64,000 nt of DNA from Escherichia phage vB_EcoM_CRJP21, in sequence record OQ708376.1; one strand, written 5' to 3'. Under the pieces are notes generated by a model, which was given only the letters and a program-made list of their open reading frames with translations, did no database searches and was not told where the DNA came from. The translations under genes and the position numbers were made by a program. This document shows, in pieces, positions 10,780 through 28,161 of the stretch; within the stretch, counting starts at the first letter, position 1; every line of letters starts with the position of its first letter.

Positions 10780-10874
10780 ACTATTGACAATATCATCAAG
10801 TACTGGCATAATACTTACATCAAGACGAGAACGTCACTAACCCATAGGGTGCACAAATGTAACTGTATAATATT

Positions 10875-11368: not shown

Positions 11369-11431
11369 AAAGTATTGACAGTACTGAAAGATAGTGTATA
11401 ATGTTTTATATCTTAACTGAGGATAGAAATC

Positions 11432-11788: not shown

Positions 11789-11866
11789 TACTTGCATTTA
11801 GTTTTCAGTAGTGTTATAGTACTTACATCAAGGGGAAACATCTTCCCCTACTAAGAGGAAATGAAA

Positions 11867-12055: not shown

Positions 12056-12082
12056 TATTAATTTAATAGAGGATAACAATAA

Positions 12083-12406: not shown

Positions 12407-12412
12407 AAACTA

Positions 12413-12440
12413 TTGACAAGATAATCTAGTACTGTATAAT
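12413..12440 (+). promoter_or_regulatory. sigma70-like promoter with extended -10 (TTGACA, 16 bp, TGTATAAT)
   Basis: consensus boxes. Confidence 0.65.
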
Positions 12441-12489
12441 AAGTTACATGAAGGGGAGAAATGATTCTCCCCACTGAGAGGAAAGAAAA

Positions 12490-12702
12490 ATGCAAGGTCA
12501 ACTAATCGTTCGTAAATGGTCTGATACTAACGCTAAACCGTGGGATGTACAATACATCGGACCGGATGGGGTATCACGTTATCAGCCTGGCGTAACGCAT
12601 AGTACTGAGCAATATGCCGCCGCTCACCGCGAACGCCTGTTAGAATCCATGAAACAGGGATACGGTGAAAAATTCATTCAAGATCATTGGCTGAAAGATT
12701 AA
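12490..12702 (+). CDS. hypothetical protein (70 aa)
   Basis: track ORF; promoter + hairpin. Confidence 0.6.
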   Translation: MQGQLIVRKWSDTNAKPWDVQYIGPDGVSRYQPGVTHSTEQYAAAHRERLLESMKQGYGEKFIQDHWLKD

Positions 12703-12719
12703 TATAAGGAGTACAGCTT

Positions 12720-12812
12720 ATGCAAATGAATCCGATGATTATTGTTTTAGCTGTACTTATGATCATTCATGCAATAGTAGAAGTATTAACGCAATCAGGA
12801 GTAATAAAATGA
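12720..12812 (+). CDS. small hydrophobic peptide (30 aa, predicted TM)
   Basis: strong RBS TAAGGAG 8 nt upstream; MQMNPMIIVLAVLMIIHAIVEVL... Confidence 0.5.
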   Translation: MQMNPMIIVLAVLMIIHAIVEVLTQSGVIK

Positions 12813-12982
12813 TTCAAGTAGAATTATCAGTACTGAAAGATCTGTTTTATCGGTTAGGTACTACTGGCGAGTATCCTAAAAGTGATACCGCAAAACTTTT
12901 TGTATCACTCGACTTATGGCAACGCGAACAATTAGTAATGTCCTGGCGTAAAGGTAAAGCAGATAGCGAGGTGAAAGCATGA
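12809..12982 (+). CDS. hypothetical small protein (57 aa, not in track)
   Basis: ATGA coupling to upstream peptide. Confidence 0.45.
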   Translation: MIQVELSVLKDLFYRLGTTGEYPKSDTAKLFVSLDLWQREQLVMSWRKGKADSEVKA

Positions 12983-13128
12983 AAGAATTCTTATTCGAAG
13001 TAGTGTTTCAAGGTGTCGGTAGTAACCAACTGATTCGCTCAAGTGGTTACAATGTTAACCAGGCATGGAATAACATTAAACAAATGTACCCGAACGCTAT
13101 CACCTATCGCAACCCGAAACAAGTTTAA
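12979..13128 (+). CDS. hypothetical small protein (49 aa, not in track)
   Basis: ATGA coupling. Confidence 0.45.
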   Translation: MKEFLFEVVFQGVGSNQLIRSSGYNVNQAWNNIKQMYPNAITYRNPKQV

Positions 13129-13137
13129 AAATAATTG

Positions 13138-13234
13138 AAAAAGGGATTGACTCCGGTCAGTCCCTTTGCTATTATATACGCATAGAAACAAATCAGCCCA
13201 CAGGGTGCATAAATGTATCTATTGTTTGCTGGTG
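13138..13234 (+). repeat. intergenic cassette copy B (R3 hairpin-promoter + R2) followed by Chi octamer 13227-13234
   Basis: near-identical to copies at 9111, 16409, 18667. Confidence 0.55.
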
Positions 13235-13299
13235 GCTAGTACTGAAAACTATTTTTAAAAAAGTACTTGCATTGTACTTAGAATCAAGTATAATGTTTT

Positions 13300-13375
13300 A
13301 CATCAGGACGGGGAACGAAACAAGTAACCCCGTTAAGTAGTCCAGGAGTAAGACATAAGAAAACCTCCCCTGATA
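13300..13375 (+). ncRNA. candidate structured leader / small RNA (copy 2)
   Basis: about 90 percent identical by eye to 3390..3465; between tandem promoters. Confidence 0.35.
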
Positions 13376-13443
13376 AAATAGTTTGACAATAGAAAGTAAA
13401 CGAGTATAATACTTACATCAACCACTGATAAGGAAACATTAAA

Positions 13444-13719
13444 ATGCGGATTCTACTGACAGCTAACGAAATCGAACAAGTACTGACTACTAACCTGGAA
13501 GACTGGAAACGTGAAGCAGATATCCAGGCGGTTCAACGGCTTAACGATGAGTTAACGCCGGATGACTTAAGCAAGATTGTAGATCCTCAATTCTACGAAG
13601 ATATCCACGACACCGCGTTAAGCGTCGAGGATGTACTAGATAAGCACTACATTGATATTGATTTGCAGGTTTACGGTCGTAAAAACTTTATCACTATTCA
13701 CGACATTTACAATAATTAA
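13444..13719 (+). CDS. hypothetical protein (91 aa)
   Basis: track ORF; promoter TTGACA-16-TATAAT at 13382-13409. Confidence 0.65.
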   Translation: MRILLTANEIEQVLTTNLEDWKREADIQAVQRLNDELTPDDLSKIVDPQFYEDIHDTALSVEDVLDKHYIDIDLQVYGRKNFITIHDIYNN

Positions 13720-13805
13720 GTATTGACAAAGTATCTTAGTACTGTATAATAGTTTACATCGAGAGGGGGAATGGTTCCCCTCCTAACAAAGAGAGAGAAA
13801 TAAAA

Positions 13806-13988
13806 ATGGCTAAATGCACTATCTGTAAGAAAGAAATCGTATTAGTTCCAAGTGCCCGTGAACGTGCCGCTCGGTTCGGTGGCAAAGCGTCAGACTATAC
13901 AAAAATGTTTACTACCCATGCAGCTTGCCAGGTAGCAAAACGTTCACAAGAAAGCGTAGAATTAATGCGTAAACTTTCCAAAAAATAA
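13806..13988 (+). CDS. hypothetical protein (60 aa, Cys-containing)
   Basis: track ORF; promoter + GGGGGAATGGTTCCCCTCC hairpin. Confidence 0.6.
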   Translation: MAKCTICKKEIVLVPSARERAARFGGKASDYTKMFTTHAACQVAKRSQESVELMRKLSKK

Positions 13989-14077
13989 GTATTGACAAAG
14001 TATCTTAGTACTGTATAATAGTTTACATCAAGCGAGGGGAATGGTTCCCCTCCTAACTAAAAGAGAGAGAAATAAAA

Positions 14078-14401
14078 ATGGCTATGATCCTTACCCAGAA
14101 AGTAGAACTGAAAATTGTAACCTCCTTTGACATTAAAGTTAATCGCTGGACTGATCGGAACGGTAACACTTACCACTCTTGCTACGTGTCCGCGTTAATT
14201 GGCGACCGCTGGGAAGACTTGGGACATGAAACCTTTACTTACGGTTACGGTACACAAGGAGAATACACGGGCTTGGAGATCATTAAAGAAACCGTTATAG
14301 GTTTCAACCCGAAAGAAAAAGTTATTCACCGCATCGAAAAAGAGATTAACAAAGAAATAACAGTTCGCTACTACGATGTAAAACGTAAGAAAGACATGTA
14401 A
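14078..14401 (+). CDS. hypothetical protein (107 aa), paralog of 7447..7770
   Basis: promoter/leader duplicated from the 13727 copy. Confidence 0.65.
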   Translation: MAMILTQKVELKIVTSFDIKVNRWTDRNGNTYHSCYVSALIGDRWEDLGHETFTYGYGTQGEYTGLEIIKETVIGFNPKEKVIHRIEKEINKEITVRYYDVKRKKDM

Positions 14402-14496
14402 TAGAATCCATTTAAAGTACTATTTGACATTGCCCAGATAGTACTTTATAATAGACTCTAACTTGTAGTACTAACTCAACTAATAGGATGTATACC

Positions 14497-14892
14497 ATGA
14501 TTACTAAATTCTACGCTACCCGTGAAGCTGCCCGTATTGTTGCACGCGAGGAAGGAGCAGCATTTAAAGACATGGGCAAAGATGCACCGAAAGGTCAACG
14601 CTGGGCCGTACAGTTCAAAGAAATCTCTGATATCGTGAATTCACCGGAGCCAGTACTAACAGCAGCAGAACTAAAACGAGCGGATTTACTGGCGGCAGTA
14701 CTTAACGCACAAGATGAATTTATCGCTGATTCTGATATCAAAGTACAGACAAACCATACCGCTTGGACTCACGCGGATCACCTGGCAAACCTTAAGCGTC
14801 CAAGTGAACTGGTTCGCAACCAGAAAGAGATCCGACACGACCGTAAGGGTAATCGTGTAACAGTATACAGTAAACGCCGCCAGGTTATCTAA
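14497..14892 (+). CDS. hypothetical protein (131 aa), paralog of 2520..2786
   Basis: ATG 8 nt after TAGGA; shared motifs. Confidence 0.6.
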   Translation: MITKFYATREAARIVAREEGAAFKDMGKDAPKGQRWAVQFKEISDIVNSPEPVLTAAELKRADLLAAVLNAQDEFIADSDIKVQTNHTAWTHADHLANLKRPSELVRNQKEIRHDRKGNRVTVYSKRRQVI

Positions 14893-14914
14893 TAACTTGC
14901 AGTACTAACAACAC

Positions 14915-14940
14915 GGCGGGATCAGTTCCCGCCTTTTTTA
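14915..14940 (+). terminator. rho-independent terminator
   Basis: GGCGGGA-tcagt-TCCCGCC + TTTTTT. Confidence 0.75.
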
Positions 14941-14954
14941 TAGGATAAACTAAA

Positions 14955-15209
14955 ATGATTAAGGTACAACTATCTAAAGATAATATCTTGCGGGTACACT
15001 ATAAAGCACCACAGAGAATCATCACAAAGGCCGTACAGCTTGCTAATGAGTTTATTAATGGTAACCTATTACCAAGGAAGTTAAGCAACGGAAAACTGCG
15101 TGTAATCGATGTAGACACTAACAACAGAATAGTAATTGAGAACACAGGAAAGATAAACCTATATGAACACCAACAATATAATAAGAAAATAAAACTAATA
15201 TCACGTTGA
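14955..15209 (+). CDS. hypothetical protein (84 aa)
   Basis: track ORF. Confidence 0.55.
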   Translation: MIKVQLSKDNILRVHYKAPQRIITKAVQLANEFINGNLLPRKLSNGKLRVIDVDTNNRIVIENTGKINLYEHQQYNKKIKLISR

Positions 15210-15262
15210 CAGTACTCAATTGTTTTAGTACTATGTACATATACCAACACGGGAGAAACAAA

Positions 15263-15481
15263 ATGAAATTATCTAAAATCGAAAAGAAAACTATTGATGA
15301 AGCAGTTAAGCACGGTTATACCTTTCGTAATGATTCACATTTTACCAATTTTCAACAAGGGTATCGTACTATTAAAAAACTCATTGACAAAGGTTTATTA
15401 GTTGAAGTCAATAACGGCAATGGTATTGAGTATCAACCAACACAAGACGCATTTTATTTTAAGAAATATAATATTATCTAA
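15263..15481 (+). CDS. hypothetical protein (72 aa)
   Basis: internal ATG after promoter TTGACAGTACTCAA... Confidence 0.55.
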   Translation: MKLSKIEKKTIDEAVKHGYTFRNDSHFTNFQQGYRTIKKLIDKGLLVEVNNGNGIEYQPTQDAFYFKKYNII

Positions 15482-15539
15482 TTGACAGTACTCAAATGTT
15501 TTAGTACTATATGTACATACCAACACGGGGAAAAACAAA

Positions 15540-15782
15540 ATGATTACTTTAGAAAAACGTATCAAAGAAACTACATCGCTGGTGGAACTGTTAACAGTAC
15601 TGAAATGCCGTACTACTCGGTTTAGTACACCGGACTTTATTAATATGGTTGATGTTAATGGTCGCTATCGTATCACGGTCGAACAAGGAGCGGCGAAAGT
15701 ATTCAGTACTAAAAACACTAAGGAAGTGATTCACGCTGTAAGTGTTAAAAAAGTAGTTGCCATTGATAGTAAAGTACTGTAA
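15540..15782 (+). CDS. hypothetical protein (80 aa)
   Basis: track ORF; promoter duplicated from upstream gene. Confidence 0.55.
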   Translation: MITLEKRIKETTSLVELLTVLKCRTTRFSTPDFINMVDVNGRYRITVEQGAAKVFSTKNTKEVIHAVSVKKVVAIDSKVL

Positions 15783-15813
15783 GATAGTTTCATTAACTCA
15801 AGGAGAACATGCA

Positions 15814-16398
15814 ATGCGTAATTATACTAAATTCATCCGTACCCTGTCAGAAATGGAAACCAACAAAGAGATCCTTTCAGCTTGTCGGTTAGCTGGTCTG
15901 GAGATCATCGGTGCGGGTTCTTCCCGTATTGTATTCGCTTTAAATGATCGGTTAGTGATTAAGGTCGCGAATTGTGATGCGGGTGTAGAACAAAATGAAA
16001 CTGAATGTAAGGTATGGAATTTTTTAGATTATGACCGCCCTCAATTGAAACAGTACTTTGCAAAGGTGCATATGCATTTATGCGATCCTGATAATATGTT
16101 TATCGTTATGGATCGGTTGAGTACTGCAAGTAAAGGCAGTGTAAAGCACGTAAACGCGTGCAATGAATTAAAGTACAATATTAAACGTAATGCCATTGAA
16201 CGCCAGCACCGCTTTGCTGATGCACTACAACACGTTGATGATACATTATCAACACTAACGATAAGAGATATCAGAAAACAGAATATCGGCCAGGATCGTA
16301 ATGGCCTTATTAAAGTACTTGATTACGGTTTAACCCGCAATATCTGGAATCAGTACTATAAAAAGCGTGATGTAGAAGCAAGTAAGGTAACACGATAA
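15814..16398 (+). CDS. protein-kinase-like protein (ePK/RIO/Kdo-kinase-like fold)
   Basis: Gly-rich loop IGAGSSRIVF, Lys motif VIKV, catalytic-loop-like IRDIRKQNIG, DFG-like LDYG; RBS AGGAG. Confidence 0.5.
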   Translation: MRNYTKFIRTLSEMETNKEILSACRLAGLEIIGAGSSRIVFALNDRLVIKVANCDAGVEQNETECKVWNFLDYDRPQLKQYFAKVHMHLCDPDNMFIVMDRLSTASKGSVKHVNACNELKYNIKRNAIERQHRFADALQHVDDTLSTLTIRDIRKQNIGQDRNGLIKVLDYGLTRNIWNQYYKKRDVEASKVTR

Positions 16399-16408
16399 AA
16401 AAGATTAA

Positions 16409-16498
16409 AAAAGGGATTGACTCCGGTCAGTCCCTTTGCTATTATATATTCATTGAGAGATAACTCACTGACCCATAGGGTGCGGAAGTGTATCTATT
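16409..16498 (+). repeat. intergenic cassette copy C (R3 + R2)
   Basis: near-identical to other copies. Confidence 0.55.
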
Positions 16499-16619
16499 AT
16501 ATAAGTATTCAGTACTGAAAACTATTTTTAAAAAAGTACTTGCATTGTACTTAGAATCAAGTATAATGTTTTACATAGAGAGGGGGAAATGGTTCTCCCT
16601 GGTAATAAGGAATAAAATC

Positions 16620-16841
16620 ATGACTACAATGACTTGCATTTACGCTTCCAATCTTCTGAATGATGCGGCCTTTAATGTTGATTCAGAATATCAATGTTAT
16701 CGGGATGAAAATAAAAAAGTTTTTGTAGTTGATAATAATGGTTTCCATATTGAATTACAATCCGGTTTCACTGGTGTTGATGGTAAATCAGTGTGGGGCG
16801 TACAGGATGATAAAGGCACATATCATTTTAAACGTAATTAA
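16620..16841 (+). CDS. hypothetical protein (73 aa)
   Basis: internal ATG after promoter and hairpin. Confidence 0.6.
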   Translation: MTTMTCIYASNLLNDAAFNVDSEYQCYRDENKKVFVVDNNGFHIELQSGFTGVDGKSVWGVQDDKGTYHFKRN

Positions 16842-16925
16842 GTATTGACAAAGTATATCAGTACTGTATAATAGTTTACATCAAGGGGAGAATAGTTCTC
16901 CCCGATACTAAAAGGAAACAAAATT

Positions 16926-17198
16926 ATGTCCAGCTACTCCGCTACTATGATCATTAAAGATATGAACGGTAATCCTACTTCTGCTGGTGGATCATTTGGA
17001 AACATTAATTTAGATGGTCGGTTATCCATGCAATCAGCCATCGATGCAGCGAAAGAAGTTTTTAAGAATGAATGTACTGTTAGTAAGATGGATTATATGG
17101 GATTCGCTATCGAGAAAACTAATCGTTTTGTGAACTACAAAAATCCACTGATGATTGATACTAACCTGAAAGCTAACGAAGTGGGGTACTTATTATGA
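16926..17198 (+). CDS. hypothetical protein (90 aa)
   Basis: track ORF; promoter TTGACA...TGTATAAT + hairpin. Confidence 0.6.
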   Translation: MSSYSATMIIKDMNGNPTSAGGSFGNINLDGRLSMQSAIDAAKEVFKNECTVSKMDYMGFAIEKTNRFVNYKNPLMIDTNLKANEVGYLL

Positions 17199-17386
17199 CA
17201 GTAGAAGAAGTTAAAAAAGTACTGGCAGTACTACGCTATCATAATCATTGCAAGGTGAAGAATGATCCTGATTATGTTGATTCATCCCTGGAGGAAGACA
17301 CATTAAACGCAATAAGCCATATGCAAACATTAGCAAAGCGTATGACCGAAAAGAATAGACCGGACTATATCGGAAATAAAATTTAA
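17195..17386 (+). CDS. hypothetical protein (63 aa)
   Basis: ATGA translational coupling. Confidence 0.55.
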   Translation: MTVEEVKKVLAVLRYHNHCKVKNDPDYVDSSLEEDTLNAISHMQTLAKRMTEKNRPDYIGNKI

Positions 17387-17472
17387 AAAGTACTTGCATT
17401 GTAGTTAGATTAACGTATAATGTTTTACATAGAGCGGGGGAATAGTTCTCCCGCCAGTCCAGGAGATACACC

Positions 17473-17736
17473 ATGAACACTATCGAAATCACTATCAATG
17501 CACACGTATACGACAACGTAGTACTGCAAACTACTATGACCGCTAATGATACCAGTACTTTGCGGAATACCGTTGTAAGTGCTGTATGTGCTGCAATCGG
17601 TGATGTAGCCCTGGAAAATGCAGAACACATCAACAACGGTTTCACTATGTGCAAACGTGATAACGCAAAACATATCATCTTAGAAGGTTACGGCGGTGTA
17701 GAATATAATCTTTATATGAAAAAAGTACTTGCATAA
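17473..17736 (+). CDS. hypothetical protein (87 aa)
   Basis: track ORF; promoter + hairpin; RBS AGGAGA. Confidence 0.65.
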   Translation: MNTIEITINAHVYDNVVLQTTMTANDTSTLRNTVVSAVCAAIGDVALENAEHINNGFTMCKRDNAKHIILEGYGGVEYNLYMKKVLA

Positions 17737-17803
17737 TAACTAAAACAAAGTATAATGTTTTGCATAGGGGGAGATATCCTCCCCCACTAAAAGGAGTAAT
17801 AAA

Positions 17804-18028
17804 ATGGCTAACTTTGATGAACTGATGCGGGAAGTAGCTAACCTGGCAGAAGAGAAGAAATCATTCGATTCTATCTATAACACCGCTCACCGTGATTCAG
17901 TACTGGCATGTACTCAGGATCAAAAAGATGAACTAATCGCCACCTATCATGAAGCATGGAAGTACTACCGACAATGGGAGAAAGAAGAAAGTGAGTCTAC
18001 CATTGACGGCCTCAATAATCTAATCTAA
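17804..18028 (+). CDS. hypothetical protein (74 aa)
   Basis: track ORF; promoter overlaps stop of upstream gene. Confidence 0.6.
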   Translation: MANFDELMREVANLAEEKKSFDSIYNTAHRDSVLACTQDQKDELIATYHEAWKYYRQWEKEESESTIDGLNNLI

Positions 18029-18104
18029 AAGTTTTATTTCAGTACTATTGACATAGCTTGATAGTACTGATGTAATAACTTTACTAACTACAAGGGGAAA
18101 CATA

Positions 18105-18362
18105 ATGGAACAGTTCACACAATATCGGGTAAATCCTCAAGCTATGGCCTACGTAGAAGACCATAAAACATTACCAGTACTGCAACCAGTTAAAGGCCAT
18201 ATCTATCGTGCTATGTCGTGGAGTACTGCACAGGATGGATATAAAACCGTTGCCGTGGGTATGTATTGCGGGAATGGTGAATGGTTTGATCCAAATAATC
18301 CGGTAGCCATTGACAGTACTGAAAAAATGAAATGGGCCGACTACATCGAAGATATTTCATAA
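18105..18362 (+). CDS. hypothetical protein (85 aa)
   Basis: track ORF; class-II promoter. Confidence 0.6.
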   Translation: MEQFTQYRVNPQAMAYVEDHKTLPVLQPVKGHIYRAMSWSTAQDGYKTVAVGMYCGNGEWFDPNNPVAIDSTEKMKWADYIEDIS

Positions 18363-18451
18363 AACTATTTGACAGTACTAACCAGTAATGTATAATGTTT
18401 TACATAGAGCGGGGGAATAGTTCTCCCGTCAATAGTTTGGAGTAAAACATT

Positions 18452-18652
18452 ATGTCTATCGCTATCGCCCTGGTTGAAGTACTGAAAGAAGCTAAAGCCA
18501 ACCTTATCGATGTACAGATTAAGGAATTACAAAATGGTTTAATCGGCTGTACTTGTACCGCTGGTGGAGCGGCAGACTATCGGGAATTCGAATCACTTGA
18601 ATCGATGGTCCGTTATCTTACCATGATCGTAGAAGATTGGAGAATCATCTAA
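18452..18652 (+). CDS. hypothetical protein (66 aa)
   Basis: track ORF; promoter + hairpin. Confidence 0.6.
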   Translation: MSIAIALVEVLKEAKANLIDVQIKELQNGLIGCTCTAGGAADYREFESLESMVRYLTMIVEDWRII

Positions 18653-18666
18653 CAAAAAAGAATAAA

Positions 18667-18790
18667 AAAAGGGATTGACTCCGGTCAGTCCCTTTGCTAT
18701 TATATACTCATAGACAAAAACTAGCCCACTGGGTGCAGGAGTGTATCTAAAATATATAGTTAATAACGGTGAGTAACTATCTGCTGGTGG
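18667..18790 (+). repeat. intergenic cassette copy D (R3 + R2) followed by Chi octamer 18783-18790
   Basis: direct read. Confidence 0.55.
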
Positions 18791-18898
18791 GGTGAAAACT
18801 ATTAATAAAAAAAGTATTGACAAAGTATATCAGTACTGCAATAATGTATCTCGTAGGGCGGCAATGGTGCGACGGCCCACAAAGTTAGGAGATTCAAA

Positions 18899-19231
18899 AT
18901 GAGTACTTCAATCGCTATCGTTAAAGCTTTCATCCGTACCAATGTTTCATCTGTATTCATCGACGGTCTGGATCGGGAAGTAGAATACTCAATCATTATC
19001 GCACAGACTGCAAACGGTGCTCGGTATATCCTTAATGATAGTGAAGCAAATCACTACTACTTCACTAAAGCTACTGGCTTTAAACGCATCGATGCTGACG
19101 TAGTATACACTAAGATGAATAAGCTGGTAGACAAGATTAACGCGAAAGGTACTATCGATTTACAGTACTGGACCGAAACCGATCCAGAATATGGATCTCA
19201 CCGCTACCTGAATCCAGGTATTAAAATGTAA
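18899..19231 (+). CDS. hypothetical protein (110 aa)
   Basis: track ORF; RBS AGGAG. Confidence 0.65.
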   Translation: MSTSIAIVKAFIRTNVSSVFIDGLDREVEYSIIIAQTANGARYILNDSEANHYYFTKATGFKRIDADVVYTKMNKLVDKINAKGTIDLQYWTETDPEYGSHRYLNPGIKM

Positions 19232-20094: not shown

Positions 20095-20192
20095 GAAATA
20101 AAAGGGATTGGACTATGGCAAAATGCGTAGGGGGCTAAAGGGCGGGTAACCTTAGCGACTTCGATAAAGGGGTATTACGAATAAAATGTTAT

Positions 20193-20221
20193 TGACTTTT
20201 TATACAATTCATATATTATAT
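20193..20221 (+). promoter_or_regulatory. candidate promoter of family-1 array (TTGACT + AT-rich -10)
   Basis: TTGACT then TATTAT/TTATAT; exact -10 uncertain. Confidence 0.4.
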
Positions 20222-20249
20222 GATTGATATTATTTTCAAGGGAGTCCCT

Positions 20250-20447
20250 ATGCGTATTTTAACTCAAGCAGAACACCACGAAAGACTTATCAATAACATG
20301 GCTATGATAATGTATAAGTCACATGAACGTGGTATTTCCTATAAGCGTGAATTAATTATGGCACTATTCATTGGAACTAACTTTCAGGAAAGGTATGTCA
20401 AGGATTGGATTTGGTATTTAATTGAAGATGTAACGAGTAAACTATGA
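20250..20447 (+). CDS. family-1 small protein (LGTNYQ-core family)
   Basis: core FIGTNFQERYV; ATG 7 nt after AGGGAG. Confidence 0.6.
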   Translation: MRILTQAEHHERLINNMAMIMYKSHERGISYKRELIMALFIGTNFQERYVKDWIWYLIEDVTSKL

Positions 20448-20644
20448 AAATGCGTAAATTAACCGAAAAAGAATATCAAGCACTGTTACGTAAAAACTTC
20501 ACAAAGATTTATAATACAGACACACACGTAGAACGAATGGAGTTATACCTTTTGATTACATTGGGAACAAACTATCAGGGTAGATGGGTGTGGCAATATA
20601 TGGATACATTGAAAAATAAAATATTGTCCACGAGGAAACAATGA
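20444..20644 (+). CDS. family-1 small protein
   Basis: core LGTNYQGRWV; ATGA coupling. Confidence 0.6.
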   Translation: MKMRKLTEKEYQALLRKNFTKIYNTDTHVERMELYLLITLGTNYQGRWVWQYMDTLKNKILSTRKQ

Positions 20645-20850
20645 AAACTATAACACGAACCCAATCATACGGTCTTATCTTGAAATACATGGACTTAATG
20701 GTGGATATCAGCAAAGACCTTCCTAAAACTGAAATTGAAGTTGCAAGAGCAGAGATCCGCATGTTGGCTGTACTGAACACAAACCATCAGGAAGATTATG
20801 TTGAAGAATGGATTCGATTTTTAATAGAAGATATAAAGAGTAAACTATGA
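20641..20850 (+). CDS. family-1 small protein
   Basis: core LNTNHQEDYV; coupled. Confidence 0.6.
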   Translation: MKTITRTQSYGLILKYMDLMVDISKDLPKTEIEVARAEIRMLAVLNTNHQEDYVEEWIRFLIEDIKSKL

Positions 20851-21062
20851 TTATTATAGAAAACTCATATCAATATACTGAACGCATCGCTGCCAGACAA
20901 CTTGAAATCCTCATAATATACGAAGAGACTTCTGATTTAAACTTAGCCGAGGTATTGGAAAATGAAATACTTTTGGGTGCATTCTTAGGAACAGACTATC
21001 AGAAGTATTATGAGGAAAAGTATTTGTCATCTCTTGAGAAATATATCAGGAGCAAATTATGA
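20847..21062 (+). CDS. family-1 small protein
   Basis: core LGTDYQKYY; coupled. Confidence 0.6.
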   Translation: MIIIENSYQYTERIAARQLEILIIYEETSDLNLAEVLENEILLGAFLGTDYQKYYEEKYLSSLEKYIRSKL

Positions 21063-21271
21063 TTTTTTTAACACCAGAAGAATATAAGAAACGTTTCAAT
21101 TCCGCACAGGGTGAAATCTTACTTATATACCTTTCAAATGCAGACCTTAACTTATCAAGGGTATTAGAAAAAGATTTACTTATGGGTGCATTCCTTGATA
21201 CAGACTTTCAGGTGTATTATGTAGGGGAATACTTAATTGCACTTCAGAATTATATCAGGAGTAAACTATGA
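21059..21271 (+). CDS. family-1 small protein
   Basis: core LDTDFQVYYV; coupled. Confidence 0.6.
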   Translation: MIFLTPEEYKKRFNSAQGEILLIYLSNADLNLSRVLEKDLLMGAFLDTDFQVYYVGEYLIALQNYIRSKL

Positions 21272-21495
21272 AACATTTAAGTAATATTGAGAAGATGAGA
21301 ATTATCATTGATGCATTAAACAAATACGATACCCTTTTACAAATAAAAGGTTTAACTCGATTGGAACACAAGATAAACACCACCGATGTACGCATGATGG
21401 CTGTACTGGGGACGAACTTCCAGGAAGAGTATGTTATTGCACACATAGTTGCACTCAAGAATTACATTATGGACAAATGTAATGAACATCATTAA
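21268..21495 (+). CDS. family-1 small protein
   Basis: core LGTNFQEEYV; coupled. Confidence 0.6.
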   Translation: MKHLSNIEKMRIIIDALNKYDTLLQIKGLTRLEHKINTTDVRMMAVLGTNFQEEYVIAHIVALKNYIMDKCNEHH

Positions 21496-21706
21496 TAACT
21501 TTGAATACGAGGCCCGTGCTAAGAGTGCCAGAAAAAAAGAGAACACCATTTACTTCACTATGATGTACTTACAATGGACTGAAATTGAAGAAAAGGTTGC
21601 TGAAGTATGGATGTTGGAATTCATGGGGACGCAGTATCAGAATAGGTTTGCGGGTGAGTATATCAATGTTCTTATGAAACAAATAGAAAGAAAGGAAAAG
21701 AACTAA
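21482..21706 (+). CDS. family-1 small protein
   Basis: core MGTQYQNRF; internal ATG chosen. Confidence 0.5.
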   Translation: MNIINNFEYEARAKSARKKENTIYFTMMYLQWTEIEEKVAEVWMLEFMGTQYQNRFAGEYINVLMKQIERKEKN

Positions 21707-21864
21707 TGGTTTTCATTAACATATCTGACCAACTCGATACTAAACTAGAAGTCGAGCAGAGTGAGGGATGGATGCTGTACTTTCTTGGAACTTCTCATCA
21801 AAATTTTTATATCCATGAACACATAGTTGCACTCACAAATCTAATAAGGGATAAATGTAAATGA
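21706..21864 (+). CDS. family-1 small protein (52 aa, not in track)
   Basis: core LGTSHQNFY; TAATG coupling. Confidence 0.5.
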   Translation: MVFINISDQLDTKLEVEQSEGWMLYFLGTSHQNFYIHEHIVALTNLIRDKCK

Positions 21865-22118
21865 AACACTTGACGAACGATGAATATTCACTTAGAATTC
21901 GAAAGCTCACCCCAGAAGCAAGAGTAATCTACGATGACGGTGAACTTTCATGGAACGAGATGAAAGTTAAAGTTCATGAGCTATGGTTGCTGTACTTTGT
22001 GGGAACCCAATATCAAGAGAAATATTGTACCGATTATCTTGAACAACTAATGGATCTTATACAGATAAAACTAAATGAACGAATTGTGGAAAAATATGAA
22101 GACTTTATCAAGCACTGA
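21861..22118 (+). CDS. family-1 small protein
   Basis: core VGTQYQEKY. Confidence 0.55.
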   Translation: MKHLTNDEYSLRIRKLTPEARVIYDDGELSWNEMKVKVHELWLLYFVGTQYQEKYCTDYLEQLMDLIQIKLNERIVEKYEDFIKH

Positions 22119-22347
22119 GTATCAGACTGCCCTCTTCTCCCTTCTAAACACTCTCCGCACGAACAATAAACTTTATAATTCCCGTGAAGCTGATATCGTC
22201 AACGGTGATGTTTATCTTATGAAATTCATTGGAACAAACTATCAAGAACTGTTCACTCAACGATATATCTCTGCACTGAGAAACGAAATATCAGATAAAA
22301 CCCGCCAAGCCAGAAGAGAATGGAAGAGACAATGCAACAAAGACTAA
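22096..22347 (+). CDS. family-1 small protein
   Basis: core IGTNYQELF; N-term MKTLSSTEYQ. Confidence 0.55.
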   Translation: MKTLSSTEYQTALFSLLNTLRTNNKLYNSREADIVNGDVYLMKFIGTNYQELFTQRYISALRNEISDKTRQARREWKRQCNKD

Positions 22348-22583
22348 ATCACAAAATGTATTTTAAACTATTACAGAATCTGGGACAAAAACACTATGAT
22401 ACAGTATCTGAAATATTACCCTATGATATCATGCGTTTAATTCATAGTGAGGCAGAGATGCTTGTACTGATGACAGGCACTGATAAAACAGCAATTACCA
22501 AATCTATAGATATGTTCATCGATGCACACTGCCAACACATTAGAACCGAGATATGGAGACGTGAGAATGAAAATCCTGACTGA
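22320..22583 (+). CDS. family-1-like small protein (divergent core)
   Basis: core LVLMTGTDKTAIT; start uncertain. Confidence 0.45.
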   Translation: MEETMQQRLNHKMYFKLLQNLGQKHYDTVSEILPYDIMRLIHSEAEMLVLMTGTDKTAITKSIDMFIDAHCQHIRTEIWRRENENPD

Positions 22584-22782
22584 GCATGAGTATTACAATA
22601 GGTTAAGAACTATACAAGGAAAAGTCTCGTGGACTTTTTTAGATAATTCTATTGCAGAAGCGGACCGATGTGTTATAATAGCTGAAATGAAGCTATTACT
22701 CTTCATTGGGACAAACTATCAAAGTATCTACATAGACGCATGGTTAAGCAGCTTACGTCTGAAGTCGGTGAGTTTAAAATGA
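22567..22782 (+). CDS. family-1 small protein
   Basis: core IGTNYQSIYI; N-term MKILTEHEY. Confidence 0.55.
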   Translation: MKILTEHEYYNRLRTIQGKVSWTFLDNSIAEADRCVIIAEMKLLLFIGTNYQSIYIDAWLSSLRLKSVSLK

Positions 22783-22997
22783 GAAAATTAATAGGTTTCG
22801 AATATGTTAAGCTTCTACAAACCTGTGGAATCAGAAGGAGAATGATTCAAAAGGATAAAAGAATTGCCGAAGAACGAAAGTATATAATGATAACTGAACT
22901 TTATGTCTTAACACTCTTAGGCACAAACTATCAACACACTTATGTAGACCTATGGATCGATGCACTACAGAAAGAGGTTAAAAGTAAATGCAAATGA
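22779..22997 (+). CDS. family-1 small protein
   Basis: core LGTNYQHTYV; ATGA coupling. Confidence 0.55.
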   Translation: MRKLIGFEYVKLLQTCGIRRRMIQKDKRIAEERKYIMITELYVLTLLGTNYQHTYVDLWIDALQKEVKSKCK

Positions 22998-23206
22998 TTA
23001 ATTTAAGTAAAGACGAATTTTATGTTATACTGGCGAAAACTTATCCAGCACGTAAGGCCGTTTATGATAGTAACATTATTGAACCCTCAAAGAAGTTGAT
23101 TTTAGTAAATGAGATAAAGATGCTTTCAGTCTTAGGGACAAACTATCAAGAGAATGCTGTACTGATGTTAATTGATGCCCTCCAGCGAGAGGTTAAACGT
23201 AAATGA
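22988..23206 (+). CDS. family-1 small protein
   Basis: core LGTNYQENAV. Confidence 0.6.
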   Translation: MQMINLSKDEFYVILAKTYPARKAVYDSNIIEPSKKLILVNEIKMLSVLGTNYQENAVLMLIDALQREVKRK

Positions 23207-23433
23207 AAATGATTCATTTAACTTACCATGAATATCAAAAACGTTTAAATGCATCCAGAGATATAAGGATTCAAATATTCAATAACAAAAGATTGAAGCC
23301 TGATATCAGAAAAATCAAAATTATAGAAGCAGAGTTATGCAACTTTCTAGGGACCAACTATCAGGCAGGTAAGGTAAAAAACTATCTTAGAGAACTAATG
23401 AATAGTATTGAAAATAAATGTAAGGGTAATTAA
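23203..23433 (+). CDS. family-1 small protein
   Basis: core LGTNYQAGKV. Confidence 0.6.
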   Translation: MKMIHLTYHEYQKRLNASRDIRIQIFNNKRLKPDIRKIKIIEAELCNFLGTNYQAGKVKNYLRELMNSIENKCKGN

Positions 23434-23434
23434 C

Positions 23435-23674
23435 ATGAAAATGATTAAATTATCTCAAGCAAAATATAAAGAACGCCTGGTGAAAATTGCACCTGGACTT
23501 AATGAAATCCATCACGGAGAAGTCATTAAACACGGAAATAAGATGATTATGAAACTTGAGTTAAAGGTGGGTGCATTCATAGGAACAAACTATCAGGAGT
23601 ATTATGTAGATGAATACATAATCGCACTTAAGAGATACATTGGAAGAAAACTATATCTACAAACTAAAGAATAG
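23435..23674 (+). CDS. family-1 small protein
   Basis: core IGTNYQEYYV; N-term MKMIKLSQAKY. Confidence 0.55.
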   Translation: MKMIKLSQAKYKERLVKIAPGLNEIHHGEVIKHGNKMIMKLELKVGAFIGTNYQEYYVDEYIIALKRYIGRKLYLQTKE

Positions 23675-23703
23675 TATTGAAAATAAATGTGAGGTTGATG
23701 AAC

Positions 23704-23967
23704 ATGCAAATGATCAATTTAAGTAAAGATGAATATACCGAGCGTATGACAAAAATTACGCACAAACGTAATACAATCTATCACAACCCAGAAATTCAAC
23801 ACAGTAAGAAAATGATTATGATGCGTGAGTTAAAGATGGGTGTATTCTTAGGAACAAACTATCAAGATACAGAAGTAAATCGCTTAATCGCGGAGTTACT
23901 ACTGGAAATCAGAGGTAAGCTGTACTTTCATCAAATGACCCAACCACTGAGGTGTACTGATCGATGA
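23704..23967 (+). CDS. family-1 small protein (tandem duplicate of 23435 gene)
   Basis: core LGTNYQDTEV; duplicated junction upstream. Confidence 0.55.
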   Translation: MQMINLSKDEYTERMTKITHKRNTIYHNPEIQHSKKMIMMRELKMGVFLGTNYQDTEVNRLIAELLLEIRGKLYFHQMTQPLRCTDR

Positions 23968-24215
23968 ATACTATGAATAAAATTAATAAAATCGACTTAG
24001 CAGAAAGTTTTGCCAGAATGGGGGAAGCTCTGAAAAGATACGAAAAGGAATATGGTCATTTAAGCTTTTCTATAGAAAAGAGATATGAACTGGAAACAGA
24101 GTTTAAAATGCAGAGTCTCTTAGGAACACAATATCAAACAAGATATGTTCAAACTTGGATTGATTGTTTAATCCAGACAATTCATGTAAGGAACATTAAA
24201 TGCAAAATGAAATGA
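23964..24215 (+). CDS. family-1 small protein
   Basis: core LGTQYQTRYV. Confidence 0.6.
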   Translation: MNTMNKINKIDLAESFARMGEALKRYEKEYGHLSFSIEKRYELETEFKMQSLLGTQYQTRYVQTWIDCLIQTIHVRNIKCKMK

Positions 24216-24454
24216 TATACTTAACCTATAATGAATACGTCGAGAGATTAGTTCGTGCCAAGAGATATACCAATAAACGTCCAATTGACCTAAACCAAAC
24301 CCCAGCAGAAAGGAGTGCAGAAGTATTATTCCAATCACTACCATATCTTCTGGGAACTGATAGACAAGAGGAATATGTTGCACGTATGATTAGATATCTT
24401 AAAATCACTATTAAGGAAAAAGTAAATGCAAATGAAATACTTAACAGACGATGA
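24200..24454 (+). CDS. family-1 small protein
   Basis: core LGTDRQEEYV. Confidence 0.55.
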   Translation: MQNEMIYLTYNEYVERLVRAKRYTNKRPIDLNQTPAERSAEVLFQSLPYLLGTDRQEEYVARMIRYLKITIKEKVNANEILNRR

Positions 24455-24677
24455 GTTAAAAGAACGACTAATTAAATCAAGAAAACATACAAATCAACTT
24501 CCAAACGACACAAACAAGTCTCCAGCGGAAAGGAGTGCAGAAGTTTTATACATTCAACTCATGTACTTTCTTGGCACTGACAGACAAGAGTATTACATTG
24601 AAAGTATGCTTCGATATCTTAAATTCTCTATAAAGGAAAAGATACATGATCAAGTATTTAAAAATCCTAACAGTTAA
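24426..24677 (+). CDS. family-1 small protein
   Basis: core LGTDRQEYYI. Confidence 0.55.
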   Translation: MQMKYLTDDELKERLIKSRKHTNQLPNDTNKSPAERSAEVLYIQLMYFLGTDRQEYYIESMLRYLKFSIKEKIHDQVFKNPNS

Positions 24678-24888
24678 TGAATATCATAAGATTGTAATGA
24701 AAACTAATAGTGATTACGCTAAAAAATCAAACCCAAAGTACATACTGGAACACACATTTGAAGAACGTCAATTAGCTTTAGTTGAAGCAAAACTTCTTGC
24801 ACTATTAGGAACAAACTATCAGGAAGAATACAATAGAAAACTAATATACCTTTTAACTAAACATATAAGAAAAAGAAAAAATGCATGA
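24646..24888 (+). CDS. family-1 small protein
   Basis: core LGTNYQEEY. Confidence 0.55.
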   Translation: MIKYLKILTVNEYHKIVMKTNSDYAKKSNPKYILEHTFEERQLALVEAKLLALLGTNYQEEYNRKLIYLLTKHIRKRKNA

Positions 24889-25115
24889 AACACTTGACAG
24901 ATGATGAACATGGGCTTATAGTAATGGATGTAATCAACATCGAATACAAAAAGTTGATACGCTATCGTTGTTATGAAGATAAGCAACTCGTTCTAGCAGA
25001 ACAGAAGTTGTTTCGACTCTTAAACACAAACTACCAAGCACAATACGAAGAATCGTATATGTACCTTTTGGCGAGGAAAGCAAAAAGAGATTATGAAAAT
25101 TTTAAGCAAAGGTGA
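24885..25115 (+). CDS. family-1 small protein
   Basis: core LNTNYQAQY. Confidence 0.6.
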   Translation: MKHLTDDEHGLIVMDVINIEYKKLIRYRCYEDKQLVLAEQKLFRLLNTNYQAQYEESYMYLLARKAKRDYENFKQR

Positions 25116-25314
25116 TTCAGTAATATTACTTATAGAGAGTTCAAGTAAATTCTTAAACATAACACTGTCTGATATAGATGAAGATGACAAAGAAGTACTG
25201 AGAGCAGATTTAAGAGTACTGTTACATATCGGAACAAACCTACAAGAAGAATATGTAGAGTGCTACATCAATGAACTTAAAGAATCAGTACTGAGAAAAT
25301 GCAAATGCAAATGA
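25093..25314 (+). CDS. family-1 small protein
   Basis: core IGTNLQEEYV. Confidence 0.55.
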   Translation: MKILSKGDSVILLIESSSKFLNITLSDIDEDDKEVLRADLRVLLHIGTNLQEEYVECYINELKESVLRKCKCK

Positions 25315-25532
25315 AAATCATTACCGATGTAGAATACCTAACAATCATAAATGGACTGTTTTTGAAGCTCTTCGTCATTAACACATCAGATATACCAGAT
25401 ATGGATAAAATTATTAAGAGAAATGAAGTCTATGTTCTAGCTACCCTTGGAACGAACTATCAAGAACACGACATTAAAGATTATATTAATACACTTAAAC
25501 GAGCGATTGAACTAAAATGCCAAAACCACTAG
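25299..25532 (+). CDS. family-1 small protein
   Basis: core LGTNYQEHDI. Confidence 0.55.
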   Translation: MQMQMKIITDVEYLTIINGLFLKLFVINTSDIPDMDKIIKRNEVYVLATLGTNYQEHDIKDYINTLKRAIELKCQNH

Positions 25533-25732
25533 GAACAGCAGAATACATTGAACTCATGGGATTACACTTCTCATCCTTTCAGAAACTTATGCGAGAATCA
25601 AAGAATGATTTAGAATATACCATCAGAGGTTCCGATTTAAGAATGCTTCTCACCCTAGACACAGATTCCCAAGAGCGATTTGTCAATGAGCATATTAGAG
25701 CACTTTTAATGGAAATTAAAAGTAAACTATGA
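25517..25732 (+). CDS. family-1 small protein
   Basis: core LDTDSQERFV. Confidence 0.55.
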   Translation: MPKPLGTAEYIELMGLHFSSFQKLMRESKNDLEYTIRGSDLRMLLTLDTDSQERFVNEHIRALLMEIKSKL

Positions 25733-25944
25733 AGATAATATCAAACCAAGAGTACTTGGCACTATTCAGGAAGAATAATCACAAATATATGGCACTTGAT
25801 TCAAGAACTGATATAAGTGAACTTGAAAAAAATCTTTTGCGTTCAGATATGATAGTACTGACACTCTTAGGAACACAGCATCAAGAGAGAACTGTTAATT
25901 CACACATAGGTATTCTTATACAGATTGTACAGGAAAAGATATGA
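25729..25944 (+). CDS. family-1 small protein
   Basis: core LGTQHQERTV. Confidence 0.6.
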   Translation: MKIISNQEYLALFRKNNHKYMALDSRTDISELEKNLLRSDMIVLTLLGTQHQERTVNSHIGILIQIVQEKI

Positions 25945-26162
25945 GAATCATATCACAACAAGATATTCTTAAGTTCACAAGGGTTCATGCATCTGAATTT
26001 GATGCTATATTATCAAAAAGTTACAACAACCCTTATACACAAGATGTACATTACAGTGAATTATGGATGTATATACTTTTAGGTACAAATAAGCAAGAGC
26101 AAGCCGTACAGAAGTATTTGACAGCTTTACGTGATGCTACAGCTAATGGAGTATGTGTTTAA
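25941..26162 (+). CDS. family-1 small protein
   Basis: core LGTNKQEQAV. Confidence 0.6.
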   Translation: MRIISQQDILKFTRVHASEFDAILSKSYNNPYTQDVHYSELWMYILLGTNKQEQAVQKYLTALRDATANGVCV

Positions 26163-26163
26163 T

Positions 26164-26406
26164 ATGAAAGTACTATCTGAATTAGAAATGTATCATAGAT
26201 TTAATAAGTACTATCATTTACTTAAGCCTATACAGAGGATTAAATGTCCATTTGAAGAGAAACAGGTATTAATTTATGAGCATAAGTTATTTGTATCATT
26301 AGGTACGAATGAACAAGAGTATTATTTGAAGTTGTACTTGATTACATTAATAGATTTAATTCACTATAAAACCAAACAAGCTAATAAAGAGAAATATGAA
26401 AACTAA
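26164..26406 (+). CDS. family-1 small protein
   Basis: core LGTNEQEYYL; N-term MKVLSELEMY. Confidence 0.55.
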   Translation: MKVLSELEMYHRFNKYYHLLKPIQRIKCPFEEKQVLIYEHKLFVSLGTNEQEYYLKLYLITLIDLIHYKTKQANKEKYEN

Positions 26407-26740
26407 TATACAACTCAAGGTATATAAATCATTTGAACATACATATATCAAAAGTAGTCTATGTAGAGATGTAATGGATTACAAGGGTAAGCCATTCACA
26501 ATTACCTATGATTCTTATGTTAGTGATTTATATATATCATTTGTTAATTACGAAAATAAAATATACAAGCACGTTGATATTAAAGATTTAAGTACTTTAT
26601 CACCAGAGGAATACTTTCAGGAATCATTAGTATGGGATTTAGAGTTCCCTATGCCATTAGTACATAAGATGATAGTACTAATGAAAGAATCTAAACAGGA
26701 GCCTAATAGTGGTTATGAAGAACACACAGTTGAGTATTAA
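26396..26740 (+). CDS. family-2 protein (EEYFQxSLV-core family)
   Basis: core EEYFQESLVWD. Confidence 0.6.
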   Translation: MKTNIQLKVYKSFEHTYIKSSLCRDVMDYKGKPFTITYDSYVSDLYISFVNYENKIYKHVDIKDLSTLSPEEYFQESLVWDLEFPMPLVHKMIVLMKESKQEPNSGYEEHTVEY

Positions 26741-27110
26741 AAGTACTGATAATACTAAGAGTTATACAAGCTCAAGTACTGTGACAATCGAAGTGAATTC
26801 TATTAATGCTGGTAATGCAGTAGATAAGTTCTTTATTGCTCAAGGGTACAGGAAAGATATTCATCAATACTGTTCAGTATATGGGGAGTACAATTCTACT
26901 GAAGATATAATTTATTGGTCAACACATCAAGATTATATAACTAAAATTGGCGTTCCAGATGTTAGTACTTTATCTGAAGAAGAATACTTTCAGTACAGCT
27001 TAGTACATGATGTACCTATACCTTTAGGGTTAATCAAGGGTATGCAGGAAGAGGTTCATAAGCTTAAATCCATGAGTTCAGGTACTTTCATTAGAACAGT
27101 GCAATACTAG
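26709..27110 (+). CDS. family-2 protein
   Basis: core EEYFQYSLVHD. Confidence 0.6.
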   Translation: MVMKNTQLSIKSTDNTKSYTSSSTVTIEVNSINAGNAVDKFFIAQGYRKDIHQYCSVYGEYNSTEDIIYWSTHQDYITKIGVPDVSTLSEEEYFQYSLVHDVPIPLGLIKGMQEEVHKLKSMSSGTFIRTVQY

Positions 27111-27169: not shown

Positions 27170-27415
27170 ATGTTAAAATTTTTAAATTTCCTTATCGTCT
27201 TGTGTATTGTTCTTGGAATTGCACCGTTTGTATTAGCGTATCTGGATTCAGATGAAATGCAGAAGATGAATTGCACAAAGACAGGACAGAGTAGAGAAGA
27301 GACGGTTATGATGCCTGTAACGGTTATTGTGAATAACATACCAATTACGAACATGATTCCTACCCTAACGACAACGTACCAGTACTCTTGTGCAGACGGA
27401 GAGAGGTGGAGATGA
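27170..27415 (+). CDS. small membrane protein (N-terminal TM helix)
   Basis: MLKFLNFLIVLCIVLGIAPFVLAYL hydrophobic N-terminus. Confidence 0.5.
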   Translation: MLKFLNFLIVLCIVLGIAPFVLAYLDSDEMQKMNCTKTGQSREETVMMPVTVIVNNIPITNMIPTLTTTYQYSCADGERWR

Positions 27416-27732
27416 AATTTAATATAGCAAAAACATCGAATGTATGTATATTTGGTTATGCAGATGAGTTAGGTGATATTGACATTCTTTTGTACAAAAA
27501 GGATGGTGTTATGCATTTCAAGTACCAGGATGAAGAGGCAGACAATTATCCTTTACCTAATTTAGTACAAATGCAGGAAGAGGAATTATTCCAGTACAGC
27601 TTAGTATATGACATTGATATTTGCACGATGCCAGTACTAATTAATATTCAAAAAGTGATGCTCGATGTGTTTGATAGGCTAATACAAGGCACACAAGGAA
27701 GAACCATATATGTCAATGTACAAGACAATTAA
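27412..27732 (+). CDS. family-2 protein
   Basis: core EELFQYSLVYD; ATGA coupling, RBS GGAGG. Confidence 0.6.
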   Translation: MKFNIAKTSNVCIFGYADELGDIDILLYKKDGVMHFKYQDEEADNYPLPNLVQMQEEELFQYSLVYDIDICTMPVLINIQKVMLDVFDRLIQGTQGRTIYVNVQDN

Positions 27733-27925
27733 TCAAGAATGGAAGACCCAAAAGTACAGGGAATTCAGTACTAGTTTAACAAAAGATGCATTGAATTTAA
27801 AAAGAACAGAGTTTGATATGTTTATTTTTCTTGGAACACGTTCACAGGAACAATACATTCATTATTATATAAGTTCATTGCGAACGGAGATCGTATACAA
27901 AACACAGGGTATTATAAAAAAGTAA
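27710..27925 (+). CDS. family-1 small protein (outlying copy)
   Basis: core LGTRSQEQYI. Confidence 0.5.
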   Translation: MSMYKTINQEWKTQKYREFSTSLTKDALNLKRTEFDMFIFLGTRSQEQYIHYYISSLRTEIVYKTQGIIKK

Positions 27926-27933
27926 ACCAATAT

Positions 27934-28161
27934 TTGTACGCTACAAAGTACAGGGATTTTTGTTTAAAGGGTGGTGATGAAGATTTTTCTTTGCGATTAT
28001 CAGAATTTAATCTGTTATTTTATCTTGGTACATCGGAACAAGAAGAAATGGCACAGAAATTTATCAAGCACCTTGAACAAAAAATTCATATGCAAATTTT
28101 GATGCTTAAGGTACATAATGAGATAAACAAATATGAACCCAACAATAGTACAGGATCTTAA
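27934..28161 (+). CDS. family-1 small protein (outlying copy, TTG start)
   Basis: core LGTSEQEEMA; no in-frame ATG. Confidence 0.4.
   Translation: MYATKYRDFCLKGGDEDFSLRLSEFNLLFYLGTSEQEEMAQKFIKHLEQKIHMQILMLKVHNEINKYEPNNSTGS

Follow-up and report, generated by a model that had tools for sequence, protein, structure and literature searches.

Unequal homologous crossing-over is the classical model for the globin and rRNA gene clusters. Among large DNA viruses, genomic accordions and multigene families are known, examples being K3L amplification in poxviruses and the MGF families of ASFV. In phage T4, the dmd-tifA locus undergoes tandem segmental amplifications with microhomologies of 6-10 bp at the boundaries (Srikant, Guegler and Laub 2022, PMC9391042), and this microhomology-mediated amplification was demonstrated experimentally. 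Under selection, the T4 amplifications appear after only a few passages; their copies do not differ from one another and are unstable (PMC9391042).

Here, we examine a jumbo phage locus in which two small neighbouring genes, Y1 and Y2, are separated by a misplaced copy of the tail of the preceding gene, X; we refer to this remnant as the scar. Like the T4 amplifications, the locus comprises head-to-tail units in a large lytic E. coli phage, with a short putative boundary microhomology of which one copy sits at the joint. The unit also carries a small accessory gene together with its expression signals, and the repeats would later permit loss of the unit. However, the Y1 and Y2 units are old, have become fixed in a clade and sit within a 30-gene family that was there already, and they are diverged (dS 0.89, dN 0.43), lacking the near-identity expected of a recent T4-type event. 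With unequal crossing-over the array shares whole-unit variation (22 to 31 copies), the in-register loss of gene W in some relatives, and the absence of Y1 from phage UB, which is bounded by a 38-nt repeat. In contrast, the joint at the scar is out of register and out of frame and retains a surplus gene end, whereas in-register events leave none. The likeness to accordions and MGF families lies in a small, fast-evolving, lineage-restricted gene array near a genome end (about 100 bp inside the left terminal repeat), with gain and loss between strains. The phage family differs in that it is not known to be linked to host range or immune evasion and in that its members, compared by sequence alone, are ~30% identical.

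The window, that is the whole stretch of 64,000 nucleotides that was analysed, is Asteriusvirus DNA from an E. coli jumbo phage of the PBECO4/slurp01/121Q type. Its 20-28 kb stretch matches 35 phage records, all of them Escherichia or Salmonella jumbo phages of ~350 kb, and every matching record fetched belongs to Asteriusvirus or is unclassified beside the genus (PBECO4, 121Q, slurp01, SP27 and others). The top overall match is slurp01, with 92% over 97% of the length. The array and the genes around the site are:

20220-26406, plus strand: main block of the array, 28 co-directional small genes (from the ORF list, alignments, phrog_4148 and HMM)
22779-22997: gene V
22988-23206: gene W
23203-23433, plus strand: gene X, array member 14, with orthologues in UB, 121Q, Ecwhy_1 and others
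23435-23674, plus strand: gene Y1, array member 15, 79 aa (phrog_4148, AlphaFold2, homology to Y1', a relative in other phages)
23704-23967, plus strand: gene Y2, array member 16, 87 aa, found in every relative examined
23964-24215: gene Z, which follows Y2 and overlaps its end

The array genes encode proteins of 52-91 aa with a common LGTNYQ motif, and their stop and start codons mostly overlap. Thirty family members were counted, 28 in the main block and two more at 27710-28161; with an HMM made from the window members, the domain count of the window is 29. PHROG family phrog_4148 is matched at full length by X, Y1, Y2 and the further members tested, over the whole 74-position profile and with E values of 1e-21 to 1e-27 (X 3e-23, Y1 9e-27, Y2 7e-26, W 3e-21, member 05 4e-22). 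Member 21 matches less strongly (5e-6). This PHROG is without functional annotation, so the match names the genes and does not explain what they do. A Pfam scan of eight array proteins gave no significant match. Mean column identity in the alignment of array members is 29%, and since the members are only ~30% identical the array reads, by its sequence, as a standing, diversified family rather than a transient amplification. A divergent member at 22320-22583, which has MTGTDKTAITKS in place of LGTNYQ and is missed by the family HMM, is kept in 121Q, A4, TH47 and UE-S1.

The AlphaFold2 model of Y1 (pLDDT 96.3) is a bundle of three helices, the last of which spans residues 54-78. A structure search with this model returned no PDB match at E below 2, and in BFVD the significant matches, and most of the top ones, are Asteriusvirus phage proteins; the fold thus gives no function. 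A profile search of 5.8 billion proteins yielded 141 matches whose source names, where given, are all Asteriusvirus phages or E. coli, and no Pfam domain occurs among these 141 proteins. In the searchable Asteriusvirus papers, we found nothing specific on this family or array.

The left direct terminal repeat annotated in phage vB_Ec-M-J stops ~100 bp ahead of the first array gene. Because the array adjoins the terminal repeat, a role as early, polycistronic host-interaction genes is plausible. Directly before the first array gene (20220/20250), a promoter-like TTGACT-16-TATTAT at 20192-20219, with 10/12 matches, is a candidate promoter for the entire array. Further upstream, at positions 1500-19000 of the window, there are numerous exact repeats of 22-58 nt in which sigma-70-like promoter boxes (TTGACA ... 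TATAATGTTTTACAT) are combined with G+C-rich hairpins; they include 13138-13179 (three copies), 13238-13295 and 16547-16600. The annotated repeat of vB_Ec-M-J stops just short of the array, which makes it probable that this stretch belongs to the phage's own direct terminal repeat. A second, unrelated set of paralogues, of 114-133 aa and with an EEYFQxSLVxD motif, occupies 26396-26740, 26709-27110 and 27388-27732, between the main array block and the last two array members; the two tested, 26709-27110 and 27388-27732, match phrog_13866.

The site itself is marked by a direct repeat, the copies of which are:

23400-23421, plus strand: copy 1 of the exact 22-mer GAATAGTATTGAAAATAAATGT, encoding (M)NSIENKC of X
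23669-23690, plus strand: copy 2 of GAATAGTATTGAAAATAAATGT, holding the TAG stop of Y1 (23672-23674)
23378-23448, plus strand: repeat copy 1 (DR1), with the X coding tail, AAGGG, the X stop and the Y1 start
23647-23703, plus strand: repeat copy 2 (DR2), the displaced X-tail remnant; the same bases are the real X tail in Ecwhy_1 and fEgEco12

The two 22-mers are spaced by 269 nt and form the only exact repeat of at least 22 nt inside the array. With up to three mismatches, GAATAGTATTGAAAATAAATGT has two matches in 64 kb, against 0.01 expected. The repeat that encloses it measures roughly 60 nt. Identity is 88% (43/49) between 23400-23448 and 23669-23717 and about 70%, with gaps, between the stretches to their left (23373-23399 and 23642-23668). 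Gapped homology extends over the whole unit, 23373-23645 against 23642-23907 at an offset of 269-270 nt, as two head-to-tail units. Identity is uneven along these units: the 22-mer stands at 100%, the junction reaches 88% and the gene bodies 64-71%. Y1 and Y2 are 71% identical over their first 166 nt, and a repeat search reports 226 nt at 74%. In SP27, PBECO4, SD-1_S14 and JP4, and in most carriers altogether, the junction repeat is exact over 38 nt. DR1 contains a Shine-Dalgarno-like AAGGG at 23422-23426 and the X stop at 23431-23433. DR2, read in the frame of X, gives ...NYIYKLKNSIENKCEVDEH..., but its frame differs from that of Y1 and most of it does not code for protein.

An earlier note on this DNA had reported that the junction at about 23391-23440 recurs at about 23641-23706. 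The exact 22-mer and the extended identity at offset 269 confirm this; the coordinates and strings were essentially right, save that the repeat starts further left, at ~23373-23378. The same note had seen an out-of-context C-terminal remnant (NSIENKC...) before the gene at 23704, and comparison with relatives bears this out. A 1.2-kb query around the site retrieves 33 records, in many of which the matched span is ~270 bp shorter. UB, Ecwhy_1 and ph0011 lack Y1, and the alignment gap opens and closes within GAATAGTATTGAAAATAAATGT. The X protein of the window ends in ...NYLRELMNSIENKCKGN and a stop. In Ecwhy_1 and fEgEco12, X ends in ...IENKCEVDEHANDQFK and a stop, written in the same bases as 23669-23730 and running into Y2; the end ...NYLRELMICIENKCEVDEHANDQFK and a stop is encoded by the bases that make up the remnant in the window. 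Relatives without Y1 use the remnant bases as the real end of X, which marks the sequence ahead of Y2 as a displaced copy of the 3' coding end of X.

The end of Y1 leads to the same place. Residues 3-74 of Y1 match positions 1-72 of the 74 in the phrog_4148 profile, up to ...GRKL. The usual family end, ...ALKRYIGRKL, is then followed by six surplus residues, YLQTKE, and a stop. As the family C-terminus is already complete, YLQTKE and the TAG are X-tail bases read in another frame. A further element within the remnant lies close to Y2:

23691-23694, plus strand: GAGG, 9 nt upstream of the Y2 ATG, read from the sequence

This GAGG is likely the ribosome-binding site of Y2, supplied by the remnant. 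For the annotation of Asteriusvirus genomes, the tail of Y1 and the 30-nt "intergenic" gap are thus both accounted for. A promoter and terminator scan of the array found 37 promoter-like sites against 45 in shuffled sequences and no enrichment of terminators, and hence no sign of the remnant as a regulatory element.

Could the remnant be no displaced fragment at all? It might instead be a conserved junction signal, composed of an xKC C-terminal motif and a ribosome-binding site, or a Y1 C-terminus cut by a frameshift. Many members do terminate in ...(S/D/N)KC..., and sequences resembling AAGTAAATGCAAATGA recur at several junctions. However, the X tail is matched by no other junction or spacer of the array. 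X-tail bases 23373-23434 score 32.5 against the region at 23640, the best of 200 shuffles over the 8.2-kb array being 17.5, and the next-best places score at null level. A comparison of all array spacers between family domains singles out 23657-23709 as the sole one that is similar to anything else in the array (score 33, null maximum 14.5). The junction signal was rejected for want of a second match in the array, and the frameshift was rejected on the Y1 family end, which is complete before the remnant and leaves the second one surplus. The same bases are, moreover, contiguous with the body of X in the relatives that lack Y1. We regard this reading in either form as very improbable.

According to the earlier note, the gene at 23435-23674 and its upstream junction were duplicated in a recent tandem event. 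On that reading, the duplication took place in situ and the copies would still look nearly identical. The exact 22-mer and the 88% identical 49-nt junction one unit away speak for such an event, as does the pairing of Y1 and Y2, which are reciprocal best paralogues in the window (49% aa identity, against about 30-35% for other pairs). However, the copies are far from near-identical. Aligned over 74 codons, Y1 and Y2 share 64% nucleotide identity, with dN 0.43 and dS 0.89. Between orthologues of Y2 dS is 0.05 for Ecwhy_1 (98% nt identity to Y2 of the window), 0.33 for A4 and 0.62 for 121Q, the deepest sampled; the two neighbours are more diverged than any of these.

The distribution of Y1 agrees with this age. 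A tblastn search detects Y1 in 19 records that span several continents and hosts, with an identity of 96-100%; in 17 of these all 79 residues are identical, those of the scar-encoded tail among them. The eight carriers checked by sequence all have the left part of the scar in common. A relative, Y1', occurs at 68-71% in four records (CMSTMSU, EC.P1, fEgEco12 and WPEC3), and other records yield matches at the level of Y2 only, about 50%. In fEgEco12 and CMSTMSU, the two fetched, Y1' lies upstream of W and not between X and Y2; in fEgEco12 it follows V. Y1' of fEgEco12 is the closest relative of Y1 (82% nt, 71% aa). A diverged metagenome contig (L023; ENA ERZ27303252 k141_956555, 2280-2760) has the order W-Y1-scar without X, which makes it a third arrangement of this unit, and stops within the scar. 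The W gene there does not differ from that of phage A4, the Y1 body is 93% identical in nucleotides to that of the window, and the scar 78-80%. From this A4-like contig it follows that the scar travels with Y1 and predates that divergence.

By these measures the scar is old and common to about twenty related phages, and the word "recent" has to be withdrawn: the divergence figures refute it, and so do the conservation of the structure in 19 records and in the diverged contig and the placement of an 82% identical relative elsewhere in other phages' arrays. A recent duplication in place is in our opinion hardly credible.

The Y1' gene of fEgEco12 (locus L009, 501-749; a similar gene is present in CMSTMSU, whereas EC.P1 and WPEC3 are known from tblastn only) has a peculiarity of its own. 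After a normal ...GSKL end it carries a further short family-type tail, SKRARNAND and a stop, which may be a second scar of like kind, in this case in frame.

Direct repeats flanking Y1, and Y1-type genes at two or three array positions, would also fit a mobile cassette that encodes the transposase, homing endonuclease or integrase responsible for its insertion, the ~60-nt repeat being its target-site duplication. However, the 269-bp unit encodes only a 79-aa family protein and no enzyme, no tested member contains a Pfam domain, and the similarity of the repeat copies runs on into the Y1 and Y2 genes as homology between them. To our knowledge, a target-site duplication of 60 nt would also be far longer than those described. 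A mobile element was rejected on the ground that the unit encodes no enzyme, and we consider such an origin extremely improbable.

How was the remnant joined to Y1? The sequence at the joint occurs twice:

23378-23385, plus strand: AAAACTAT, left microhomology copy in the X tail, start of the repeated unit
23647-23654, plus strand: AAAACTAT at the novel joint, with Y1 to its left and X-tail sequence to its right

The homology of Y1 to Y1' of fEgEco12 and to member 05 stops at ...GGAAG(A/T)AAACTA(T), and the X-tail homology starts at AAAACTAT. At the corresponding place Y2 carries AAG CTG TAC, which is synonymous. A third boundary, in Y2 at 23917-23924 (AAGCTGTA), lies in A/T-rich sequence and matches AAAACTAT at 5/8 positions, all differences being synonymous. 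The end of Y1 is joined to the interior of the X tail in another reading frame, with ~55 surplus nt, and not at equivalent positions of two paralogues. A joint out of register and frame at the 8-nt AAAACTAT points to illegitimate, microhomology-mediated recombination and not to crossing-over between aligned paralogues. The genome being A/T-rich, an A/T-rich match of 8 nt may be fortuitous and, taken by itself, counts as weak evidence. The Y1-scar joint, searched as an exact pattern, had zero matches among JGI metagenome contigs, IMG/VR viral contigs and GTDB genome contigs.

With moderate confidence, we attribute the scar to what is the most economical course, an old tandem segmental duplication of the X tail together with the Y gene by microhomology-mediated recombination. 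The 3' end of Y1 would have been joined out of register to the interior of the X tail at AAAACTAT, through the 8-nt microhomology. The duplicated unit of X tail plus Y gene would measure ~270 bp and would have originated in situ rather than by import of Y1. Its outcome is a second copy of the last ~55 nt of X between Y1 and Y2, which brings with it a putative ribosome-binding site and the context in which the following gene starts. The event is older than the split of the Y1-carrying phages, Y1 and Y2 having subsequently diverged to 49% aa identity. The left part of the scar has decayed and now gives Y1 its six extra residues and stop, while the right part has stayed near real X tails, its right end presumably acting as the Y2 ribosome-binding site. 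The right half of the scar matches X-tail variants of phages without Y1, namely KGN and a stop in UB and 121Q and EVDE... in Ecwhy_1 and fEgEco12, whereas the left half is fixed and diverged. This pattern may indicate that the right part was repeatedly overwritten by homologous exchange with the X-Y2 junctions of co-circulating phages.

Two observations require more than this one event. The junctions are 88-100% identical and the gene bodies 64-71%, so a single old duplication is insufficient; either later homogenisation, as suggested above, or a younger junction is needed. The position of Y1' between V and W in four phages likewise demands an extra move or an independent event. A neighbour-joining tree places (Y1,Y1') beside the Y2 clade, in keeping with Y1 and Y2 as sisters. 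The bootstrap is 88 for (Y1,Y1'), but that for their pairing with Y2 is a mere 51%, which counts against the favoured explanation.

A different source for Y1 is conceivable. Already old and different Y1 and Y2 genes may have been combined by an off-register crossover between two co-infecting genomes, Y1 and Y2 being either alleles of the post-X slot in different lineages or, in the case of Y1, a paralogue from another array position. The Y1 end of one parent would then be joined to the X tail of the other; the junction copies would stem from two parents, and Y1 would not have been copied in place. The junction copies differ by about 12%, which is typical between lineages, while the gene bodies stand at dS 0.89. 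The population is polymorphic for junction type, and the types are distributed without regard to copy number; type 1 has the KGN end with an MKMI start (121Q) and type 2 the EVDE... end with an MQMI start (Ecwhy_1). Y1', 82% identical in nucleotides to Y1, sits at another array position, and Y1 plus scar is found downstream of W in the X-less, A4-like background as if travelling as a unit. On the other hand, the parental arrangement, X-Y1 without scar and Y2, is absent from the 33 phage records and the 141 database proteins, and Y1 and Y2 are still mutual nearest paralogues. The same off-register joint is required as for the tandem duplication, the only difference being the source of Y1. We hold the combination of two parents to be possible, if rather unlikely.

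The tandem duplication, which we continue to prefer, would have taken place in an array that also changes by other means. Among related genomes the array varies by whole units. By HMM, family domains number 31 in slurp01, 29 in the window, UB, ph0011 and fEgEco12, 24 in 121Q and 22 in A4, and members 04, 06, 07, 08, 09, 13, 14, 15, 18, 19 and 20 are each absent from at least one genome. UB, whose left flank is 98.7% identical to that of SP27, lacks exactly one unit, Y1, and its junction is the product expected of recombination inside the 38-nt repeat. Recombination between the two junction copies could hence remove or add the Y1 unit precisely. In 121Q and UE-S1, W is absent and the tail of V is fused, in register and in frame, to the body of X. 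In the window, the V|W (22960-23040) and W|X (23175-23255) junctions share a 33-nt repeat, GAGGTTAAA-GTAAATG-AAATGATT..., with 30/33 identical positions as counted from the strings. The loss of W in 121Q and UE-S1 is a case of classical in-register unequal crossing-over.

The earlier note had taken the scar as direct evidence that the array grows by unequal crossing-over. This was overstated, the joint being out of register, out of frame and built on an 8-nt microhomology, which are the hallmarks of an illegitimate event. The general idea that the array changes in size by unequal crossing-over is nevertheless supported, because other junctions, as in the loss of W, show in-register removal of a unit.

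A broader proposal, which we put forward tentatively and think unlikely as it stands, is that the array is a recombination-driven cassette system whose conserved junctions (tail, ribosome-binding site and ATG-A/C-AAATGAT start) are built-in crossover sites. If this were true, ~30 diversified early genes would lie just inside the terminal repeat, and recombination within and between co-infecting Asteriusviruses would rearrange, stack and discard units such as Y1 plus scar. Each phage would thereby receive a different set of small host-interaction or anti-defence proteins.

Apart from this proposal, the scar illustrates base by base how an orphan gene family of a 350-kb phage may gain and lose members. 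Off-register joints at microhomologies and in-register crossovers at junctions would both operate in the same array, and a duplicated junction could last across a clade and later mediate the precise loss of a unit. The locus bears on how jumbo phages diversify their accessory genes; the mechanism itself is already known.

Two further features mark the downstream end of Y2. Past the family end, Y2 carries a 13-residue extension, FHQMTQPLRCTDR (23926-23967), which overlaps the start of Z; compared with the rest of the array it scores at null level, with no match. The boundary between Y2 and Z is a mosaic breakpoint: slurp01, 121Q, UE-S1 and TH47 have another member after Y2, about 43% identical in amino acids to Z. 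Similarity to the window breaks off at base 23958 in another 17 records as well, PBECO4 and G17 among them.
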